Shown here piece by piece: positions 2,638-11,706 of a DNA stretch of 32,000 nt. The notes beneath the pieces were generated by a model. It was given only the letters and a program-made list of their open reading frames with translations, was not told where the DNA came from and did not search any database. Positions within the stretch are counted from its first letter, which is position 1; every line of letters begins with the position of its first letter. Source of the stretch: Idiomarina loihiensis L2TR (GTDB lineage Bacteria > Pseudomonadota > Gammaproteobacteria > Enterobacterales > Alteromonadaceae); NCBI RefSeq assembly GCF_000008465.1, contig NC_006512.1:2340001-2372000 (forward strand), in the 5' to 3' direction. A program made the position numbers and the translations under genes.

Positions 2638-3555
2638 TTATTGAATAGAAGTTGCGATACCCTCTTTTTGGAAGAGATGTTGTAGCGTTTCGATTACATG
2701 TTTTACAACCAAATCGCTATCTCTTCGTGCATGCCAGGCTAAATGCAGACTGAAGCCTGGCACCGCGATGGGCGGCTCAAAAATAGCCAGCCCCTGGGGG
2801 TCAGAAAGACAATTCATGGGCGTGGTCGCAATCATATCGGTGGCTTTAATCAAGGGGTCGATCATAGTGAAATTTGGTACAACAGCACCAACATGGCGAA
2901 CTTTTCCTTGTTGAGCTAGTACTTCTTCCACGGACCCGCGTGCATTCCCCTCCCCGGAAACAACGATATGTGGCCAAGCCAACCATTCGTCCGCGTTAAA
3001 CTTCTGCGCGGCAGGATGCGAGGCCCGCATGGCCACAACATAGCTTTCATATGCAATTTGTTGCCGATAAAATTTTGGAGGCAACGCAGGAAAGGTTGAA
3101 ATTGCAATGTCGGCCTCGCCATTCTCAAGACGATGAAGTGCGTCCTTACTGCTGCGCCATGGCAATAACGATAAATTCACTTTTGGCGCACTGGTACTTA
3201 ATTTAGTTAAAAGATGGGTCATGACGATAAGTCCTGGTTGATCCGCCATTATTAAGCGAACCGTTTGCCGAACTTGCGTCAATTCAACTTTAGGTATCTC
3301 CACAATAGCCGTTATAGCAAGCAAAGCCTGGGACAGCGGCTCTTTTAACGACTGTGCTTTAGCCGTTAATCGCATCTCACCGGCAACACGCTCTAATAAT
3401 GGATCATCAAAAATATGTCGACACCTGTCTAGAGCATTACTCGTTGCTGGTTGCGACAAAGCAAGACGTCGAGCGGCCCGCGTTACATGTTGCTCTTCTA
3501 GCAAAGCATGCAAAATTACCAGCAGGTTAAGATCCAAAGAGCGAAGATTGACCAT
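2638..3555 (-). CDS. LysR-family transcriptional regulator
   Basis: 'LRSLDLNLLVILHALLEEQHVTRAARRLALSQPATSNALDRCR' is a canonical LTTR wHTH. The ORF is open up to 3633, but the internal Met at 3555 gives the usual LTTR N-terminus, so the start is uncertain (3555 or 3633). Confidence 0.8.
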   Translation of the reverse strand: MVNLRSLDLNLLVILHALLEEQHVTRAARRLALSQPATSNALDRCRHIFDDPLLERVAGEMRLTAKAQSLKEPLSQALLAITAIVEIPKVELTQVRQTVRLIMADQPGLIVMTHLLTKLSTSAPKVNLSLLPWRSSKDALHRLENGEADIAISTFPALPPKFYRQQIAYESYVVAMRASHPAAQKFNADEWLAWPHIVVSGEGNARGSVEEVLAQQGKVRHVGAVVPNFTMIDPLIKATDMIATTPMNCLSDPQGLAIFEPPIAVPGFSLHLAWHARRDSDLVVKHVIETLQHLFQKEGIATSIQ

Positions 3556-3883
3556 ATCAATTACCAAGGTTAAAAGAGACTGAATCGAACCGGTAAATTC
3601 GGAGGTGTATCTGTTTAAATCATGCTGCCTCATCTTCTGCTAATTGTCGATAACGGCTACTTTTATATTCGGCAGGTGTGATATCTCTGATGATATTGAA
3701 CCGTTTCATAATCCAAGAATGCATCGTGGACTGGCAAAACACGAGTAGCGGTTTAGTGCGATTTTAAACCGGACGAGATAAGGGGGGGGAGAATCCGAGA
3801 GAGCTTCGCAAAGTCAAACAGGAACTCCCCGAATCTTCACCATTTCACCTCTCACATACGGCTGCTGACTCAGGTGATTGTGC

Positions 3884-3902
3884 GAGCTACATAAGAGCCA
3901 TT
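3884..3902 (+). repeat. Left copy of a 19-nt direct repeat (GAGCTACATAAGAGCCATT)
   Basis: Matches 7450-7468 (GAGCTACATAAGCGCCATT) at 18 of 19 positions in the same orientation. The two copies bracket the AT-rich four-gene islet. Confidence 0.5.
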
Positions 3903-4186
3903 GGAGAAGTTTGTATTCCCGCCTGAAAACATCCTATCAAATTTCTATACGACGCTAACTTTGATATGGAAACAGGGGAGATAAGGTTAGGCCAGTACGA
4001 CCGAAAGCCGTTATTTAAAGTTGTTGGTTTGCAGTCCAATGGTAAGCATCTTTTAACCAGAACTGAAAGCTGGCATCGGTGTTCCGAGTCTGGGGCGGCA
4101 TAGCCGCCTTCCTTGGAGTACTGGGAATAACTGTACTAATTTTTTAACGCAAGGTAAACTTTGCCCATCTTTAAGGCTGTAAATTA

Positions 4187-4765
4187 ATGAGCAAGATGCT
4201 ACGTGACATCGACATTAGACAATCCCTAATCGAACATTTAACTACTAGGTTTAAGTCTGAATATAAGTTGGTTGAGGAGCTCAGCATCTCTGACAAAAGA
4301 GCAAGAGCCGACGTCGTCGTTTTAGCAAAGAGCCTCTTCAACTACGAAATTAAAAGTGACGTCGATTCACTTTCGCGCTTCACAACTCAAATGTTCTTTT
4401 ACGATAGAGTTTTTGAACGAAATTTTATCGTCACTACAGACAAGCACTTAGCGAAGGCAATAGAGCTCTTGCCAAGCCACTGGGGGCTCCTCTCTGCTTC
4501 TCCGAATAGACAAGGGAGTGTAAAAATAAAAACTATTAAAGCCGCAAAAATGAGCCCTCACTGGGAGCCCGCCACGGCGCTTTTTACACTTTGGAAATCG
4601 GAGCTAATCGATATATATGAAGAGCTAAAGCTCACAGGGCCTACAAAATCATTAAGCAGAGAACAGTTGATTGAAGAAATTTCCACTAGCTCAAAACGAG
4701 GTCTTAAGCAGTCCTTTAAGAAAGCTTTAACAACCAGGGACTTCACTAGTAGTTTAAGAAAGTAG
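4187..4765 (+). CDS. PD-(D/E)xK-type nuclease-like protein (sce7726 / MmcB-like family)
   Basis: 192 aa. 'VEELSIS..RARADVVVLAKSLFNYEIKSDVDSLSRF' gives an E30/E31...D42...E54-x-K56 arrangement. The downstream 'YDRVFERNFIVTTDKH...LPSHWGLL' resembles the sce7726/MmcB family layout as I remember it. It is convergent with the Beta-family gene and their 3' ends overlap by 12 nt. Confidence 0.6.
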   Translation: MSKMLRDIDIRQSLIEHLTTRFKSEYKLVEELSISDKRARADVVVLAKSLFNYEIKSDVDSLSRFTTQMFFYDRVFERNFIVTTDKHLAKAIELLPSHWGLLSASPNRQGSVKIKTIKAAKMSPHWEPATALFTLWKSELIDIYEELKLTGPTKSLSREQLIEEISTSSKRGLKQSFKKALTTRDFTSSLRK

Positions 4766-5830
4766 TCTACCCATATATGTAATATGAGCCAATGTAGTTA
4801 CTTCTACCCATTTTGACGCCCCACCGCAGGAGGGAACTTTTCCGCGTCTAGGTTTATATACAAGGTTTTCGCGCTTTGCCACTTTTTCAATATATTCTTC
4901 AGCTTCGCAGTAGTAAGCGCGGAAAAAATCAACGTTTATAACTTTCTCAGCCAAATCGAAAAACTGACCGGTTCCGAACCTACGCATCCCTCCACCTCGA
5001 ACTACATATAATTCCCGTTCATCAGTGTAAATTATCTTGGGGGTTTGAACGTCATACATTATTTCCGGAGCGATATCTGCATCCGAATACTCAGGCGAAA
5101 CAACCCCATAATCTCCATAAACTAAACCGAGCTCTCTGTATTTTTCCCAAAGAACCCACTCAACTCGTTTTTTTCTTAGTTCAGAGTGAGGTTTCAATAG
5201 CTCAGATATAGATTTAGGAATTGAGGACGATGTCAATATAAAGTAATTAAAAGTTATTTTGCTTTCACTTATTAAAGTAAAAAAATCTTCGAGGTTTATT
5301 TCTTGATCAAAACTCTCAAGGTCTAATTGAACTCGGAAATCTATAATCAGGGCTAAATCAATATGGCTAGGAATTTCAGAAACCAAATCCTCCAGCTCCT
5401 CTGTAAGAGTTCTAGGAGCGCTAAATTCGCTTGAGTCGACCCTGACGAAAATAGTATCAAAATTATCAACTCTATCGATCACAGCCCTGTTATGATTTTC
5501 GGTACGGTCCAAACCAATAACTGGGGAGCAATCTAAATCTGAAAAGGTTTCTAGTACATAGTCATAAAGATGCGTTTTTTCAATTAACACATCTTCATCC
5601 AAGTCGTATATATCAATAACAAACGGAAAATAGGCCTTATCTTGTGCTGCTTTCATTTGTCTATAAGAAAGATCAACTTTGCCTTTAATCGCTTCTTCTG
5701 TCTCTTCCTCTGATTTCGGGATATCAAAAAAGGGAGTGCAAAGTCCGTCATTTTCTTTCGTCAACTTTACAAAAGCAGAAAGCTCGTTTTTTTTTAACTT
5801 TAGAAAAGAAACGTAGTTGTTAATATCCAA
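4754..5830 (-). CDS. Beta-family protein (PF14350, phage P4 beta / sce7725-like)
   Basis: 358 aa. The N-terminus 'YVSFLKLKKNELSAFVKL....PFFDIP' matches the family signature (Y-x-P-x-LK-x-K-x-gE-x-x-AL...P-l-x-e). The C-terminal 'YGDYGVVSPEY...PKIIYTDERELYVVRG...GQFFDLAEKV...FF' matches the conserved C-terminal block. Its start overlaps the upstream M78 gene by 11 nt. Confidence 0.65.
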   Translation of the reverse strand: MDINNYVSFLKLKKNELSAFVKLTKENDGLCTPFFDIPKSEEETEEAIKGKVDLSYRQMKAAQDKAYFPFVIDIYDLDEDVLIEKTHLYDYVLETFSDLDCSPVIGLDRTENHNRAVIDRVDNFDTIFVRVDSSEFSAPRTLTEELEDLVSEIPSHIDLALIIDFRVQLDLESFDQEINLEDFFTLISESKITFNYFILTSSSIPKSISELLKPHSELRKKRVEWVLWEKYRELGLVYGDYGVVSPEYSDADIAPEIMYDVQTPKIIYTDERELYVVRGGGMRRFGTGQFFDLAEKVINVDFFRAYYCEAEEYIEKVAKRENLVYKPRRGKVPSCGGASKWVEVTTLAHITYMGRLLS

Positions 5831-6701
5831 AATAATCCCTTATATTTATCCTGTTTACTATATCTGAAAATATCGTGTAGTTATTAGTTTCCTTTCTCAC
5901 TCGGCCAGCCACAATTGCAGGATGCACGCCTGCTTTATCCGCTATCAAGTGTAAATTTTTAATAGACGGTTTGAAGGTACTTATATTTTGAGCCTTTCTC
6001 CAGATACTTCTTGGAATAAGGTTATTTTGGGCAAATATATCTGCCTCACTCTCCAGTTTAGAGTCATTATCAAACTCCATATCCTTTGAATCTAGTATTG
6101 GTTCACTTATATTTTCTAGATGTTGGCTAACATGACCTAGCTCATGGAACAAAGTAAACCAAAAATGATCTATTCTTGGATATCTAAGGCTTAGCCCTAT
6201 ATATGGCCTGCCATCTATTGTTTTTCCCGTCACCCCATCAGTTTTTGATTTTGGTAGCGCTTTTTCCACAATTAATATTATTCCTACGCTCTCTAATACA
6301 TCTATGACATTACTGTAGTTTTCCGGGTCTCTACTTAAAACTTTAAGCTCATTTAAAGTATCCTTACTGAGCTCATCATATCTAGCAATACTCTTTTCTA
6401 TACACGTTTTATTTGCTTTATCCTCTACAATCTTTGCCCATAAAAAAGACTCATCCCTCTCTTCTTCAAGGTTTCGTCTAAATAGTCTGGAGCCCGAGGT
6501 CGAGTTTCGTAATAAAAATTCTCCAATACTTCTCGTTGAGTTGTCTTTTATTACACCTGTGCTAATTAAATCTTTTACTAAACTCTTATTACTAAGCCTC
6601 TTAGCATAAGACCATAATTTTGCTAATTCTCGTATAGAACAGTCGTTCTCGCTAGGCCTATGACCATTAATCTGAGATAAGTGAAAGTCTAGATCATTCA
6701 T
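5820..6701 (-). CDS. ImmA/IrrE-family (M78, COG2856) zinc metallopeptidase
   Basis: It has the HEXXH motif 'FTLFHELGHVSQH' and the downstream 'ESEADIFAQNNLIP' (family pattern E-x-E-A-N-x-F-A...P). The preceding 'VLESVGIILIV...DG...PYIGLSL' is typical of the IrrE N-terminal-like domain. The ORF is open to 6737, but the Met at 6701 forms an ATGAATGA overlap with the GNAT stop codon, so I take it as the likely start. Confidence 0.8.
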   Translation of the reverse strand: MNDLDFHLSQINGHRPSENDCSIRELAKLWSYAKRLSNKSLVKDLISTGVIKDNSTRSIGEFLLRNSTSGSRLFRRNLEEERDESFLWAKIVEDKANKTCIEKSIARYDELSKDTLNELKVLSRDPENYSNVIDVLESVGIILIVEKALPKSKTDGVTGKTIDGRPYIGLSLRYPRIDHFWFTLFHELGHVSQHLENISEPILDSKDMEFDNDSKLESEADIFAQNNLIPRSIWRKAQNISTFKPSIKNLHLIADKAGVHPAIVAGRVRKETNNYTIFSDIVNRINIRDYFGY

Positions 6702-7311
6702 TACAAAGCTCCTCAGCAACATTTTGAGGCATCTCAAAATATGTCAAACCTTGCTTATCTGAACTCGAAGGAATACGCTGCATTCCGATTTTGGTGTAAT
6801 ACGGGCATGACTGCGGTAGAGAGTGCAATGAGCAACCTTGTCGATACCCCTCGCTTTCGTTGAAGTATTTAAGTGTAACCTTAATTAACCCCGTACCAAG
6901 CCCTTTTTTAGGTGTTGTAGTTTGCGAGACTTTAGCTCTGTTCCAAGGCGCTACACAGATATACTCTATATAAAATATATTTTGTGTATCTATCTCGGAC
7001 GTAACTGGGTGCTTTGTAATGACTACCGCTTCAATTGATTCGCCACTCTCAGCGGAAAACCATTTATACTCATCGTTAGAGAAGGCTAGCGCTTTACTAG
7101 CCCAATTCCAATGAAAATCCTGAAAGCCCTCATCCATTAAGCATTCAATGATCTCTTCTTCAGTCTCGGCCTGATGTTTTTCACAGACATCGTTAATTAA
7201 CAATGCTAGAGAAGCACTCCACTCGTCGTTAAATTTTAAAACCTTCTTTATATCTTGTCCTTCCAGGTAATCAATACCCAATCCATTATCTGAGGCGATA
7301 TTGTTGCGCAT
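6694..7311 (-). CDS. GNAT-family N-acetyltransferase (atypical, islet-encoded)
   Basis: 205 aa. 'IFYIEYICVAPWNR...KKGLGTGLIKVTLKYF' looks like beta4/motif A (R/Q-x-x-G-x-G/A) with an insertion. 'CSLHSLPQSCPYYTKIGM' resembles the C-terminal GNAT motif B (..A..fY.k.GF). AAGGA lies 6 nt upstream of the ATG. This is the first gene of the three-gene operon. Confidence 0.6.
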   Translation of the reverse strand: MRNNIASDNGLGIDYLEGQDIKKVLKFNDEWSASLALLINDVCEKHQAETEEEIIECLMDEGFQDFHWNWASKALAFSNDEYKWFSAESGESIEAVVITKHPVTSEIDTQNIFYIEYICVAPWNRAKVSQTTTPKKGLGTGLIKVTLKYFNESEGYRQGCSLHSLPQSCPYYTKIGMQRIPSSSDKQGLTYFEMPQNVAEELCNE

Positions 7312-7393: not shown

Positions 7394-7414
7394 AATATAC
7401 ATGTGCTGTATATT
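7394..7414. promoter_or_regulatory. Inverted repeat AATATACA-tgtgc-TGTATATT upstream of the islet operon (possible operator)
   Basis: Perfect 8-bp arms with a 5-bp spacer, 83-103 bp upstream of the GNAT start codon. It lies within a cluster of AGCTACA(T) motifs. Confidence 0.3.
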
Positions 7415-7449
7415 TTTTCAACGTAAAATCGAATAAAGCAGCTACAACA

Positions 7450-7468
7450 GAGCTACATAAGCGCCATT
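7450..7468 (+). repeat. Right copy of the 19-nt direct repeat (GAGCTACATAAGCGCCATT)
   Basis: 18/19 identity with 3884-3902. It lies 49 nt beyond the 3' end of the tRNA. Confidence 0.5.
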
Positions 7469-7516: not shown

Positions 7517-7592
7517 TGGTGGCCCCTCCCAGATTTGAACTGGGGACCAACCGATTATGAGTCGGGTGCTCTAACCACTGAGCTAAGGGGCC
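7517..7592 (-). tRNA. ileX: tRNA-Ile2 (anticodon CAU, lysidine-dependent; minor AUA decoder), encoded CCA
   Basis: The reverse complement GGCCCCTTAGCTCAGTGGTTAGAGCACCCGACTCATAATCGGTTGGTCCCCAGTTCAAATCTGGGAGGGGCCACCA folds as a cloverleaf: acceptor GGCCCCT/AGGGGCC, D stem GCTC/GAGC, anticodon loop CTCATAA, T arm CCCAG-TTCAAAT-CTGGG. The acceptor stem and overall sequence match E. coli ileX as I recall it, rather than elongator or initiator tRNA-Met. Position 27:43 is a C-U mismatch. Confidence 0.85.
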
Positions 7593-9884: not shown

Positions 9885-11706
9885 CCAAGAACGATTTAAG
9901 CTGCTCTGAGCGGCTTGGATGGCGAAGCTTTCTTAATGCTTTGGCTTCAATTTGACGGATTCGTTCACGCGTCACATCAAACTGCTTGCCCACTTCTTCT
10001 AAAGTATGGTCGGTATTCATATCAATACCAAAGCGCATACGCAATACTTTCGCTTCACGTGCCGTTAAACCACCCAGTACATCGCGAACCGAGTTACGCA
10101 GGCTTTCTGATGTTGCCGAGTCAATTGGCAAGTCCAGCGTGTTGTCTTCAATAAAGTCACCCAGATGCGAATCTTCATCGTCGCCAATTGGGGTTTCCAT
10201 TGAAATAGGTTCTTTCGCTATTTTCAGTACTTTGCGAATTTTGTCTTCCGGCATCATCATGCGCTCTGCCAGTTCTTCCGGCAGTGGCTCGCGACCCATT
10301 TCCTGCAACATTTGGCGAGAAATACGGTTCAGCTTATTGATGGTTTCAATCATATGAACCGGGATACGAATAGTACGTGCCTGGTCCGCAATTGAACGGG
10401 TAATTGCCTGACGGATCCACCAAGTCGCATAAGTTGAGAACTTATAACCACGGCGGTATTCGAATTTGTCCACGGCTTTCATCAAACCAATGTTACCTTC
10501 CTGAATTAAGTCCAGGAACTGTAAACCACGGTTGGTGTATTTTTTAGCAATAGAGATAACCAAACGCAGGTTAGCTTCAACCATTTCTTTTTTCGCACGA
10601 CGCGCTTTGGCTTCGCCAATGGACATGCGACGGTTAATTTCTTTAACTTTACCAATGGTTAAGCCAGTTTCGCGTTCTACGTCAACCAGCTTGTTTACGC
10701 AGCGTTCAATTTCGCCGCGAACTTCTTTCAATGTGTCGGAGTAGCTTGCACCAGAGTCAATTTCTTTATCAACCCAGGCCATGTTGTTTTCATGGGTGGC
10801 AAAAGCTTTCATGAAGTTGCGTTTAGGCATTTCGCCCTGTTCAACGCTTATCTTCATAATAATACGTTCCTGCACACGGACACGCTGCATCATGGCACGC
10901 ATGTCTTTAACCAAACGGTCAAATTGCTTAGGAACCAAACGGAACTGTTTGAATAAGTCGCTTAACTTGTCGATTTCAACACGAGCACCTGCACCATCAC
11001 GACCATGCTTAGCAATGGCCTGACGTGTAGCTTCGTATTGTTCGCGCAGTGCATTAAATTTGCTGCGTGCGAATTCCGGATCAATACCGGTATCCGCTTC
11101 TTCCTCGTCTTCGTCATCATCGTCGTCTGATTTTTCCAGCTCTTCGCTTGGAAGTTCAGAACCAACGTTAGTAGCAGCTACAGGCGCTTCGTCTACTTCG
11201 TCTGGGTCGATGAATCCGGAAATAATGTCGGTTAAGCGCAGCTCTTCGGCTTCGTAGGAGTCCCACTGCTCAAGCAAGAAGTTAATGGCTTCCGGGTACT
11301 CAGCAACAGAGCACTGAACCTGGTTAATGCCTTCTTCAATACGCTTGGCAATATCAATTTCGCCTTCACGAGTCAGTAGCTCAACGGTACCCATTTCACG
11401 CATGTACATGCGCACTGGGTCAGTTGTGCGACCAATTTCGCCATCGACAGAGGCTAATGCTTGCGCGGCTTCTTCGGCAGCGTCTTCATCTGCAGCACTT
11501 TCTGCCATCATCAGATCATCGGCATCGGGTGCGCTTTCAAACACGCGAATACCCATGTCGTTGATCATGCGAATAATGTCTTCAACCTGATCGGAATCAA
11601 CAATTTCCTGAGGTAAATGGTCATTGACCTCAGCAAATGTCAAAAACCCTTGTTCTTTGCCTTTCGCAATAAGGACCTTAAGTTGCGATTGCCGATTCTG
11701 CTGCAT
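9877..11706 (-). CDS. rpoD: RNA polymerase sigma factor RpoD (sigma70)
   Basis: 609 aa. It has the acidic region 1.1/non-conserved domain, region 2 '[32 protein letters not shown]' and region 4 '[30 protein letters not shown]'. Confidence 0.97.

Follow-up and report, generated by a model that had tools for sequence, protein, structure and literature searches.

A four-gene cassette of Idiomarina loihiensis as a putative variant of the PD-λ-2 and Gop-β-cII anti-phage systems

A four-gene cassette occupies positions 4187-7311 of the window, the 32,000-nucleotide stretch of Idiomarina loihiensis DNA analysed here. Genes for a GNAT-fold protein, an ImmA/IrrE (M78) peptidase and a Beta-family protein follow one another on the minus strand, and a gene for a cII-like protein converges on them from the plus strand. 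We consider the locus to be, with a probability of roughly 0.7, a self-contained, horizontally acquired anti-phage module of the toxin-antitoxin (TA) or abortive-infection type that belongs to the PD-λ-2/Gop-β-cII superfamily. This reading is preferred because of homology to validated systems, the conservation of the four genes as a module, the architecture of the superfamily, the likely catalytic competence of the proteins, and signs of mobility.

Layout and setting of the islet

The features of the locus are as follows.

3884-3902: left copy of a 19-nt imperfect direct repeat (GAGCTACATAAGAGCCATT) that brackets the islet
3903-4186, plus strand: ORF-free spacer upstream of the cII-like gene, presumed to carry the cII promoter
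4187-4765, plus strand: cII-like (sce7726-family) gene, 192 aa, PD-(D/E)xK signature, convergent on the operon
4754-4765: 12-nt overlap of the convergent Beta and cII 3' ends, junction read directly
4754-5830, minus strand: Beta-family gene, 358 aa, start TTG at 5830
5820-6701, minus strand: ImmA/IrrE (M78) zinc peptidase gene, 293 aa from ATG
6694-7311, minus strand: GNAT-fold gene, 205 aa, distinct small family
7394-7421, minus strand: best σ70-like promoter candidate of the GNAT-M78-Beta operon, TTGAAA-16-TATATT, 10/12 matches
7450-7468: right copy of the 19-nt direct repeat, overlapping a terminator-like hairpin downstream of the tRNA
7517-7592, minus strand: tRNA with anticodon CAT and a tRNA-Ile2-like acceptor stem, with the islet on its 3' side

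When the junctions were read directly, the ORF coordinates and the 8-, 11- and 12-nt overlaps given in the initial annotation proved correct. The GNAT stop and the M78 start have ATGAATGA in common at 6694-6701, an overlap of 8 nt. The M78 stop TAA (5820-5822) lies inside Beta, whose TTG start is preceded by AAGGGA, resulting in an overlap of 11 nt. An in-frame TTG at 6737, upstream of the M78 ATG, is a possible but less likely start. As judged from these junction sequences, the three genes form one translationally coupled operon. At the opposite end, the stop codons of cII (TAG, 4763-4765) and Beta (4754-4756) create the 12-nt convergent overlap, and since the convergent cII transcription unit leaves no room for terminators, the cII and operon transcripts must overlap. 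Overlapping transcripts may allow the ratio of cII to Beta to be set by antisense or collision effects. The σ70-like candidate, a consensus match only, is located 83 nt upstream of the GNAT ATG, and sites of this quality are no more frequent in the region than in shuffles. A consensus scan of the spacer 3903-4186 found no plus-strand promoter-like site, and the spacer has no Rfam match.

The G+C content is 38.4% in the cassette and 47.9% in the rest of the window, and the hand counts made earlier were exact (19/60 at both 5281-5340 and 6301-6360, 28/60 at 2701-2760, and 27/60 at 9961-10020). The two copies of the direct repeat are identical at 18 of 19 positions, and the repeat is longer than those in 20/20 shuffles (maximum 14). 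The position on the 3' side of the tRNA was likewise confirmed. ARAGORN labels this CAT-anticodon tRNA as Met; its acceptor stem, GGCCCCU/AGGGGCC (C4:G69, C5:G68), presumably fits tRNA-Ile2 as in E. coli ileX. Among the ORFs between LysR (2638-3633) and the tRNA there is none for a recombinase, in agreement with the initial annotation. The window copy is surrounded by housekeeping genes and not by a defence island. These neighbours, together with the enzyme-like folds or motifs of all four proteins, would suit an operon of everyday metabolism or housekeeping that combines an acetyltransferase, a peptidase, a TIM-barrel enzyme, and a nuclease and has no part in conflict systems. However, we regard this explanation as extremely improbable, given a composition atypical for the genome, a distribution that is sporadic across phyla yet strictly syntenic, the prophage copies, and the direct homology to validated defence proteins.

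The four proteins

The families assigned earlier (PF14350, Peptidase_M78, and sce7726) were upheld, as was the GNAT assignment, which is weak by Pfam and was settled by the AF2 fold. More specifically, the first-gene product matches Acetyltransf_10 at 1.8e-5, and its AF2 model (pLDDT 91) has 304 PDB matches at E≤1e-3, where all 50 among the matches listed are GNAT acetyltransferases; the model confirms a GNAT fold, a statement that concerns the fold only. Judged by structure matches, its likeness is to GNATs of a generic kind (GCN5/PCAF, PA3270), with nothing that singles out tRNA-acetylating toxins, and it has no match among PADLOC models. The family, comprising 1,210 clusters in 1.84 billion representatives, is distinguished in its alignment by HWxWxxK, APWNR, a GxG motif A, FSLHSLP, and YFEM. 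Type II TA systems of the GNAT/RHH kind include TacAT, AtaRT, KacAT, and ItaRT, and the likeness to them consists of a GNAT-fold protein in a TA-like locus. In contrast to these systems, the window contains no ORF for an RHH/DUF1778 antitoxin, and the window family has its own APWNR insertion and no specific structural proximity to the TA toxins, which we take to be approximately 40-60 aa shorter than the window protein.

Members of this GNAT-like family (HMM E 1e-24 to 1e-35) are also found on plasmids, in RHH→GNAT→HTH→ImmA/IrrE cassettes beside immune loci. These cassettes are divergent from CBASS on three plasmids and from multiubiquitin/ThiF/DUF6527 on two, and one is beside Cas9. The preceding gene encodes an RHH protein of approximately 70 aa that is CopG RHH_1 and not DUF1778, and the M78 proteins of the plasmid cassettes are a different subfamily, missed by the cassette M78 HMM.

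The window M78 protein matches Peptidase_M78 (PF06114) at 1.6e-9 and carries the zinc motif H186-E-L-x-H190...H194...E217, with HExxH invariant across the family. Its match to PADLOC PD-Lambda-2_B (PDLC03982; 9.6e-55) covers only model positions 158-396 of 402, and it aligns at 39% identity with residues 175-394 of a full-length PD-λ-2B homologue (L099 B). The Xre HTH is absent by Pfam, PADLOC, and alignment, with approximately 174 N-terminal residues of PD-λ-2B missing; the earlier observation that the window copy has no HTH thus stands. Matches to RmrA models (8e-11 to 1e-2) are confined to the peptidase region, again without an HTH. The capP model matches at 2e-9 over residues 194-271 only (numbering of the 305-aa TTG-start ORF), and the CapP structure 7t5t is matched by profile. 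The HExxH motif spans residues 186-190 in a protein of 293, too close to the end for a C-terminal GAF to fit. The layout is of the PD-λ-2B/RmrA type, with the peptidase in the C-terminal half, and not of the CapP type.

The Beta protein matches Beta_protein (PF14350) at 8e-81 and PADLOC PD-Lambda-2_C (PDLC03984) at 8.4e-37. The P4-type PADLOC 'beta' model gives no match at E≤0.1, and a cassette-derived Beta HMM picks up P4 β at 1.7e-10; by sequence, the window Beta is a different subfamily from P4 β. Its AF2 model (pLDDT 87.6) is a predicted (β/α)8 TIM-barrel plus a C-terminal subdomain, for which Foldseek returns weak TIM-barrel matches, and the family alignment and model place invariant charged residues at the barrel strand ends.

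The cII-like protein matches NF033832 (sce7726 family) at 1.4e-45, PADLOC cll (PDLC02989, Gop-β-cII) at 4.4e-25, and also PF26915 Phage_P4_cII. Residues E31, D42, E54, and K56 are invariant in 34 sequences of the cII family, P4 cII included. This catalytic signature supports placement in the PD-(D/E)xK superfamily, as the initial annotation had called the convergent gene; no solved structure was found among the sequence relatives. Taken over the cassette, HExxH, E/D/ExK, GNAT motif A, and the Beta charged residues suggest that the enzymes are likely catalytically competent.

Relation to described systems

In PD-λ-2 of E. coli ECOR42, B (M78) is toxic alone and is neutralised by A, while C is needed for defence and the phenotype is one of abortive infection (Vassallo et al. 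2022; PMC9519451). The putative model of the initial annotation, a sensor/protease with effectors, is a reasonable one but did not foresee that the M78 protein would itself be toxic and be neutralised by the first gene. The window resembles this system in having M78 and then an overlapping Beta in one operon, which in PD-λ-2 begins with a toxin-family gene, and its M78 and Beta proteins match PD-Lambda-2_B and PD-Lambda-2_C better than any other defence model. It differs in that the first gene encodes a GNAT-fold protein and not a HigB-like RNase, and in that component B is an Xre HTH fused to M78 whereas the window M78 is the peptidase half only. No window protein matches PD-Lambda-2_A/HigB, and the HigB of a genuine PD-λ-2-type locus is without similarity to the window. 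The published clone ends approximately 396 bp past Beta, which is too short for a full cII, and cII is therefore not required for PD-λ-2 activity; a locus matching the PD-Lambda-2 A, B, and C models (7.5e-41, 2.2e-151, and 5e-74) also carries cII. Among metagenomic Beta-cII loci, 37 extend far enough for the neighbouring gene to be assessed, and 32 of these have an adjacent M78 gene product of approximately 400 aa; the gene upstream of M78 is DUF6932 in 24/33 and HigB in 4/33.

The gop-β-cII cassette of satellite P4 (gop_beta_cll in DefenseFinder and PADLOC) protects against λ and P1 and is credited to Ghisotti 1990 by Rousset et al. 2022 (PMC9122126); it is triggered by phage orf184. Both this literature and the gene order in P4 (gop→β→←cII), where the cII annotation reads sce7726 family, agree with the link to P4 made in the initial annotation. 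The likeness lies in a Beta gene and a convergent sce7726-family PD-(D/E)xK cII, downstream in P4 of a toxic first gene. However, P4 is without M78, the window has M78 and GNAT where gop stands, and P4 has a terminator between β and cII while the window 3' ends overlap. No match to gop, a 133-aa predicted membrane protein, was found in the window or in 80 related loci; P4 gop itself matches the PADLOC gop model at 4.8e-70.

Based on these comparisons, the core of the superfamily is Beta plus a convergent cII-like protein with overlapping 3' ends, usually with M78 upstream of Beta, and the first gene is swappable (HigB, DUF6932, gop, or the GNAT-like family). The proposal that the module was undescribed and without a named system is not supported in that form: PADLOC models of named, experimentally validated systems recognise all but one of the four proteins, and what is left unplaced is the GNAT-like first gene and the HTH-less form of the peptidase that accompanies it. 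Nor is the cassette new in kind, since the architecture X→M78→Beta←cII is common to PD-λ-2-type loci and, without M78, to P4. We describe it as an unnamed variant of PD-λ-2/Gop-β-cII, set apart by its GNAT-fold first gene, its peptidase without the Xre HTH, and the constant presence of cII.

RosmerTA (RmrT/RmrA; Millman et al. 2022, Ernits et al. 2023) is a two-gene system in which RmrA normally has an N-terminal HTH (PMC10440598). It shares with the window an ImmA/M78 peptidase-domain partner and variable, unrelated upstream toxin genes, and two-gene HigB or DUF6932 plus HTH-M78 pairs without Beta exist among the homologues. The window cassette is distinct in that it is without an HTH and that 72 of the 73 assessable loci include both Beta and cII, so that it is not a two-gene system.

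An M78 peptidase of the ImmA/IrrE family is also shared with CapH/CapP, ImmR/ImmA, and DdrO/IrrE. CapP has an N-terminal M78 followed by HTH-like and GAF parts, and the CapH/CapP pair is divergent from the operon that it regulates (Lau et al. 2022). It is conceivable, if rather unlikely, that GNAT and M78 form a stress- or DNA-damage-sensing regulator of this kind, in which a signal such as ssDNA switches the peptidase on, GNAT modifies the circuit or is its substrate, and Beta and cII are the effectors. The plasmid cassettes of the GNAT-like family stand at the position described for CapH/CapP, beside CBASS, ubiquitin-like, and Cas9 loci; in approximately 24 of the 80 related GNAT-type cassettes the gene directly upstream encodes a CapH-like HTH protein (PADLOC capH, 6.7e-23); and the window M78 has the capP and 7t5t matches noted above. 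However, the HTH substrate (CapH) is absent from the window copy and from most proteobacterial copies, the window M78 has the PD-λ-2B/RmrA domain order and is encoded within the operon, in the same direction, the M78 proteins on the plasmids belong to another subfamily, and the PD-λ-2 M78 protein is itself toxic.

Conservation, mobility and proposed working

A search seeded by the GNAT-like protein alone recovered GNAT→M78→Beta←cII in the same order in 72/73 assessable loci from many bacterial phyla. The absence of co-occurrence beyond this genome, which the initial annotation had named as a refutation, is thus decisively contradicted, and its view of one module of the defence or abortive-infection type is supported. 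The pairwise divergences of each protein track those of the other three (r=0.88-0.93, Mantel p=0.001). Junctions inside the operon are mostly within ±8 nt in the 67 complete homologous loci, and the tight junctions are therefore not peculiar to I. loihiensis; the Beta and cII 3' ends overlap in 63/67 GNAT-type and 73/74 non-GNAT loci. The four genes are one conserved module and not a chance grouping. The immediate neighbours of the 67 loci include few defence genes.

At least six prophage or viral contigs, recognisable by terminase, integrase, and CI genes, bear complete copies, one copy lies in Tn7-like cargo, and others have adjacent integrases. Along with the low G+C content, the flanking repeat, and the tRNA side, these contexts point to horizontal acquisition of the islet. 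A selfish addiction module, stabilising itself and its carrier elements by post-segregational killing and without a dedicated anti-phage role, might be expected to have such a patchy distribution over prophages, plasmid-like elements, and transposon cargo. TA-like logic has been shown for relatives, the window copy stands by itself among housekeeping genes, and decayed or interrupted copies exist (L034, L068, L073, and L076; L060 and L080). We nevertheless hold this to be improbable, as both of the closest characterised relatives protect against phages when cloned, one of them being triggered by a specific phage gene, and four conserved enzyme-like genes exceed a minimal addiction module. Addiction and defence are, moreover, compatible with each other.

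More speculatively, the GNAT-like protein and M78 could be a portable, acyl-transfer-based sensor or switch for varied immune effectors: Beta-cII here, and CBASS, ubiquitin-like (ThiF/multiubiquitin), or Cas9 on alphaproteobacterial plasmids. The first position would then not be a simple toxin slot, and Beta would be a TIM-barrel enzyme with new immune chemistry and not an 'antitoxin'. We think this doubtful.

For the anti-phage module that we favour, published PD-λ-2 data suggest that the GNAT-fold protein and the M78 peptidase may hold each other inactive in the uninfected cell, with Beta coupling the complex to a phage cue. Upon infection, the M78 peptidase, with its intact HExxH, would be released or activated. 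The toxic output may come from the GNAT protein acylating a component of translation, from cII cleaving DNA, or from both, such that the infected cell is arrested. The HTH that autoregulates other family members is missing in the window and is a separate CapH-like gene in the approximately 24 related loci. The GNAT-like gene stands where PD-λ-2 and Gop-β-cII carry a small toxin gene.

The four-gene cassette and its proteins

ORF calling placed the four genes of the AT-rich cassette exactly where the initial annotation had put them. These genes, in the order GNAT→M78→Beta←cII (hereafter GNAT-type), and the features around them are as follows.

4187-4765 (+), cII-like gene
4754-5830 (-), Beta gene, convergent with cII
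5820-6701 (-), M78 peptidase gene
6694-7311 (-), GNAT-like gene
3884-3902 and 7450-7468, 19-nt direct repeat flanking the cassette, 18/19 identical and exceeding every shuffle in length
7421-7394, best promoter-like site for the GNAT-M78-Beta operon, a candidate
3634-4186, 550-bp spacer from the LysR start to the cII start, holding only a 50-aa TTG ORF

The junctions described in that annotation were read directly and agree with it. More specifically, ATGAATGA at 6694-6701 contains both the GNAT stop and the M78 start, the M78 stop TAA (5820-5822) falls 11 nt within Beta, and the stops of Beta (4754-4756) and cII (4763-4765) produce the 12-nt convergent overlap. Beta starts at a TTG (5830) preceded by the Shine-Dalgarno-like AAGGGA. 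Judging from these junctions, GNAT, M78, and Beta form a single translationally coupled operon, and cII converges on it without space for a terminator. A promoter search found none for the convergent cII gene. The spacer is free of ORFs of at least 60 aa, and neither an Rfam match nor a plus-strand promoter was detected in it; an A2G8 run lies at 3780-3789.

The hand-counted G+C values of four lines (19/60, 19/60, 28/60, and 27/60) were all correct, and the cassette as a whole has 38.4% G+C against 47.9% in the rest of the window. A tRNA with anticodon CAT lies at 7517-7592(-); its acceptor stem is compatible with tRNA-Ile2, and the right repeat copy overlaps a terminator-like hairpin (7456-7438) downstream of it. 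The claim that no recombinase is present was borne out from LysR to the tRNA. On the strand opposite the tRNA, at 7519-7592(+), Rfam gives a match to 'Plastid-ycf2' of 49.6 bits, below the gathering score of 65.7; this hit almost certainly arises spuriously from the tRNA sequence.

Pfam identifies the first gene as a marginal GNAT (1.8e-5). The model of its product (pLDDT 91) has 304 PDB matches at E ≤ 1e-3, and every one of the 50 matches listed is a GNAT acetyltransferase; the modelled fold is that of a GNAT and includes motif A. With 1,210 clusters at E ≤ 1e-3 in 1.84 billion representatives, the family is small and specific; its signature is HWxWxxK, APWNR, GxG, FSLHSLP, and YFEM. It matches none of the PADLOC protein models, and annotation would therefore probably miss or mislabel the GNAT-type.

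The M78 peptidase carries an invariant HELxH...H...E motif. It matches the PADLOC model PD-Lambda-2_B (9.6e-55) at model positions 158-396 of 402 only, and shares 39% identity with residues 175-394 of a full-length PD-λ-2B homologue. As the match is limited to the C-terminal part of PD-λ-2B, the window peptidase is an M78 protein without the Xre HTH and linker. Profile searches of PDB sequences returned 9vzy and CapP 7t5t as its relatives, whereas the other three cassette families returned none.

Beta matches PF14350 at 8e-81. Its AlphaFold model (pLDDT 87.6) comprises eight β/α units and a C-terminal subdomain, for which Foldseek retrieved remote TIM-barrel enzymes alone (class II aldolases and MtgA, TM ≤ 0.47). 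The family has approximately 30 invariant residues, mainly charged, located at or just past the strand ends, and these would occupy the usual active-site location of a TIM barrel. As modelled, Beta is an enzyme-like barrel.

The convergent gene encodes a sce7726-family protein (NF033832, 1.4e-45), the family of P4 cII (PADLOC cll, 4.4e-25; PF26915). Across 34 aligned members, among them P4 cII and a protein of the Rac prophage, E31, D42, E54, and K56 do not vary, and neither do D60, R64, and Q68; the E31/D42/E54/K56 pattern reads as a PD-(D/E)xK signature. The catalytic motifs of both the peptidase and cII are intact.

Conservation and mobility of the GNAT-type cassette

A search with the GNAT-like family alone, taking one genome per species, yielded 80 loci, which were annotated using profiles made from the four window proteins, with gene starts outside the window taken as first-start ORFs. 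Contig ends interrupted seven of them. The co-occurrence survey proposed in the initial annotation gave a clear outcome: all four families occur as GNAT→M78→Beta←cII in 72 of the 73 assessable loci, a proportion that is indicative only, as the sample rests on one GNAT-family motif. The single exception is L078, where an HTH gene succeeds GNAT. Among the 72, 68 are intact, two of them with an insertion of approximately 1.3-1.5 kb (between M78 and Beta in L060, between Beta and cII in L080), and in the other four a gene is split or has decayed; Beta is broken in two in L034, L068, and L076, and the whole cassette is fragmented in L073. The hosts include Gamma-, Beta-, and Alphaproteobacteria, Desulfobacterota, Campylobacterota, Bdellovibrionia, Planctomycetota, Riflebacteria, and many Verrucomicrobiota. 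Tight junctions are kept across loci, with a Beta/cII overlap of 4-74 nt in 63 of 67 pairs, and the pairwise divergences among the four proteins are correlated (r = 0.88-0.93, Mantel p = 0.001). These conserved junctions and correlated divergences indicate that the cassette travels and evolves as one unit.

A fifth gene on the same strand, directly upstream of GNAT, is present in 24 of the 80 loci and encodes a CapH-like Xre HTH protein (PADLOC capH, 6.7e-23) of 68-180 aa (first-start ORFs), ending within approximately 33 nt of the GNAT start. This form is found mainly in Verrucomicrobiota/PVC MAGs, at the following loci.

L016, L019, L023, L024, L026, L028, L029, L031, L035, L040, L043, L045
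L046, L048, L049, L052, L053, L056, L058, L063, L065, L066, L067, L080

The cassette is a horizontally mobile unit, and a housekeeping operon is a less likely reading of it. Complete copies occur on contigs predicted to be of viral or prophage origin (at least six), near terminases, integrases, CI-like repressors, and replication initiators. At the Idiomarina locus, no islet-free version was found, as every contig with the identical LysR neighbour has the cassette or stops inside or beside it, and the predicted empty-site junction was absent from metagenomes by exact-pattern scan. The case for insertion here thus comes down to composition and the flanking repeat. A whole-cassette DNA similarity search against plasmids gave no match, and the neighbour genes of 67 loci gave no strong defence-island signal. 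The idea that the cassette moves itself as a discrete unit with conserved ends was dropped because flanking repeats are not general; of 64 other loci tested, only L011 was clearly above shuffles (the window's 19 nt having been tested separately). In Acinetobacter ursingii, a related cassette with DUF6932 in first position (DUF6932-M78-Beta-cII, L095:314-6852) lies directly downstream of TnsD-/TnsE-like genes, which suggests Tn7-like cargo.

Relation to PD-λ-2 and Gop-β-cII

Two named anti-phage systems share defining parts with the window cassette. In PD-λ-2, component A is HigB-like, B is an Xre-M78 protein, and C belongs to the Beta family; B alone is toxic, A rescues, defence requires C, and the phenotype is that of abortive infection (PMC9519451). 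The window cassette differs from it in lacking HigB and the HTH. Gop-β-cII protects against λ and P1 (PMC9122126), and its trigger is a phage accessory gene. In P4 the order is gop(+), β(+), cII(-); the convergent β/cII core is common to P4 and the window, although the latter lacks gop.

Homologues of the window peptidase were sampled for related loci. One of these, L099:3705-6892, encodes matches to PD-Lambda-2_A, B, and C (7.5e-41, 2.2e-151, and 5e-74) together with a convergent cII (cll, 1.8e-27), and in another the first position is held by a divergent GNAT-like gene. This sampling also gave a DUF6932→M78→Beta←cII locus in Tn7-like cargo. Two-gene pairs of HigB or DUF6932 with an HTH-M78 protein, without Beta, were also found. 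Such pairs resemble RosmerTA, in which an ImmA-domain antitoxin is combined with varied toxins; the window cassette, in contrast, has no HTH and is not a two-gene unit.

Search patterns could not be derived from broad Beta and cII alignments because of their divergence, and three non-GNAT cII proteins were therefore used to seed a further, less biased set of 80 metagenomic loci (L122-L201). This set represents one cII motif class, so that its proportions are indicative only. In 73 of 74 pairs the convergent Beta and cII genes overlap, by a median of 47 nt. Where there was room to judge, an M78 protein of approximately 400 aa lies directly upstream of Beta in 32 of 37 loci and is absent in five; M78 is in turn preceded by DUF6932 in 24 of 33 cases and by HigB in four of 33. 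No GNAT occurred in these 80 loci. Taken together, the sampled loci give a general architecture, X→M78(±HTH)→Beta←cII, in which X is interchangeable and the window represents the GNAT-type. Remote homology of gop, HigB, and DUF6932 to the GNAT-like family was rejected, as there is no similarity.

The published PD-λ-2 clone (ECOR42 QOYB01000002, 228989-232396) stops approximately 396 bp past Beta, too short for a full cII. Loci of PD-λ-2 type, with HigB or DUF6932, an HTH-M78 protein, and Beta, nevertheless usually include a convergent cII-like gene whose 3' end overlaps that of Beta. The definition of PD-λ-2 and its validated clone both omit cII, which is therefore dispensable for the activity measured.

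Two side observations concern DUF6932 and a pair lacking the upstream genes. DUF6932 (L095:3606-3998; e.g. L157:2872-3351) has the consensus YLDGSYVTGKPxPGDFDACW, which we take to resemble a minimal nucleotidyltransferase motif, and matches the PADLOC candidate PDC-M63A weakly (3.7e-8). A bare Beta←cII pair with a 41-nt overlap lies beside hok/mok in the Rac-SA53 prophage (L082:3992-5627) and on E. coli plasmid pSTEC1024_3 (L094:3492-5127); neither has an annotated first gene or M78, and a stretch of approximately 500 bp before Beta carries no annotation.

We consider it probable, at roughly 70%, that the window cassette is a TA-like anti-phage module of the PD-λ-2/Gop-β-cII superfamily. By analogy with the published relatives, it would combine TA-like logic with abortive-infection defence; a pure addiction module is less likely. 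In the uninfected cell, the GNAT protein and the peptidase may neutralise each other, with Beta connecting their complex to a phage cue. Upon infection, the cell might be arrested by the peptidase, the acyltransferase, the cII nuclease, or some combination of these, and the Beta:cII ratio may depend on overlapping transcription of the two convergent genes. Any specific division of the toxin, antitoxin, and sensor roles among these proteins is doubtful.

CapH/CapP-like relatives and significance

The GNAT-like family also occurs on alphaproteobacterial plasmids in cassettes of the form RHH (~70 aa)→GNAT-like→HTH (~160 aa)→ImmA/IrrE (~310 aa) (L091, L092, and L112-L115; e.g. L092:3124-5389 and L114:2612-4867). 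These are divergent from a CBASS operon on three plasmids (Methylocystis, Nitrobacter, and Methylobacterium), divergent from multiubiquitin/ThiF/DUF6527 genes on two (Nitratireductor and Novosphingobium), and adjoin Cas9 on one (Marinibacterium). Their placement is that known for CapH/CapP, which favours a reading in which GNAT and M78 act as a CapH/CapP-like sensor or regulator and Beta-cII supplies the effectors. However, the window lacks the HTH substrate, and its peptidase has the domain layout of PD-λ-2B rather than that of CapP, so that this reading, the main mechanistic alternative, is unlikely for the window cassette itself. Neither of two CapH/CapP papers mentions a GNAT partner. The window also differs from GNAT/RHH TA systems in having no RHH, and the analysis did not support equating the plasmid RHH partner with DUF1778, the antitoxin that accompanies classical GNAT toxins.

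A small composite defence island occurs in Oleiagrimonas (L098:1-6708): a GNAT-type cassette follows immediately on a CapH/CapP-like pair, which is itself divergent from a Multi_ubiq/E2/ThiF/JAB operon, and an integrase borders the opposite side.

No description of GNAT+M78+Beta(+cII) was found in open-access papers and bioRxiv. The GNAT-type is a variant of known systems, and another toxin swap would hardly astonish specialists. The useful, testable leads are the union of two named systems by Beta-cII, a cII missing from the PD-λ-2 definition, and the link between GNAT and immune regulators. At 3.6 kb, and probably with promoters of its own, the cassette is readily cloned, and direct tests are feasible. 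If confirmed, PD-λ-2 and Gop-β-cII, which were validated separately, would be one superfamily built on a convergent Beta/cII pair and a swappable first gene. The GNAT-type would then be a widespread form of it, present in at least 80 species-level genomes of several phyla as well as in prophages, and the association of the GNAT-like family with CapH/CapP-like regulators would provide a concrete entry point to a partner of the M78 immune peptidases that has received no study.
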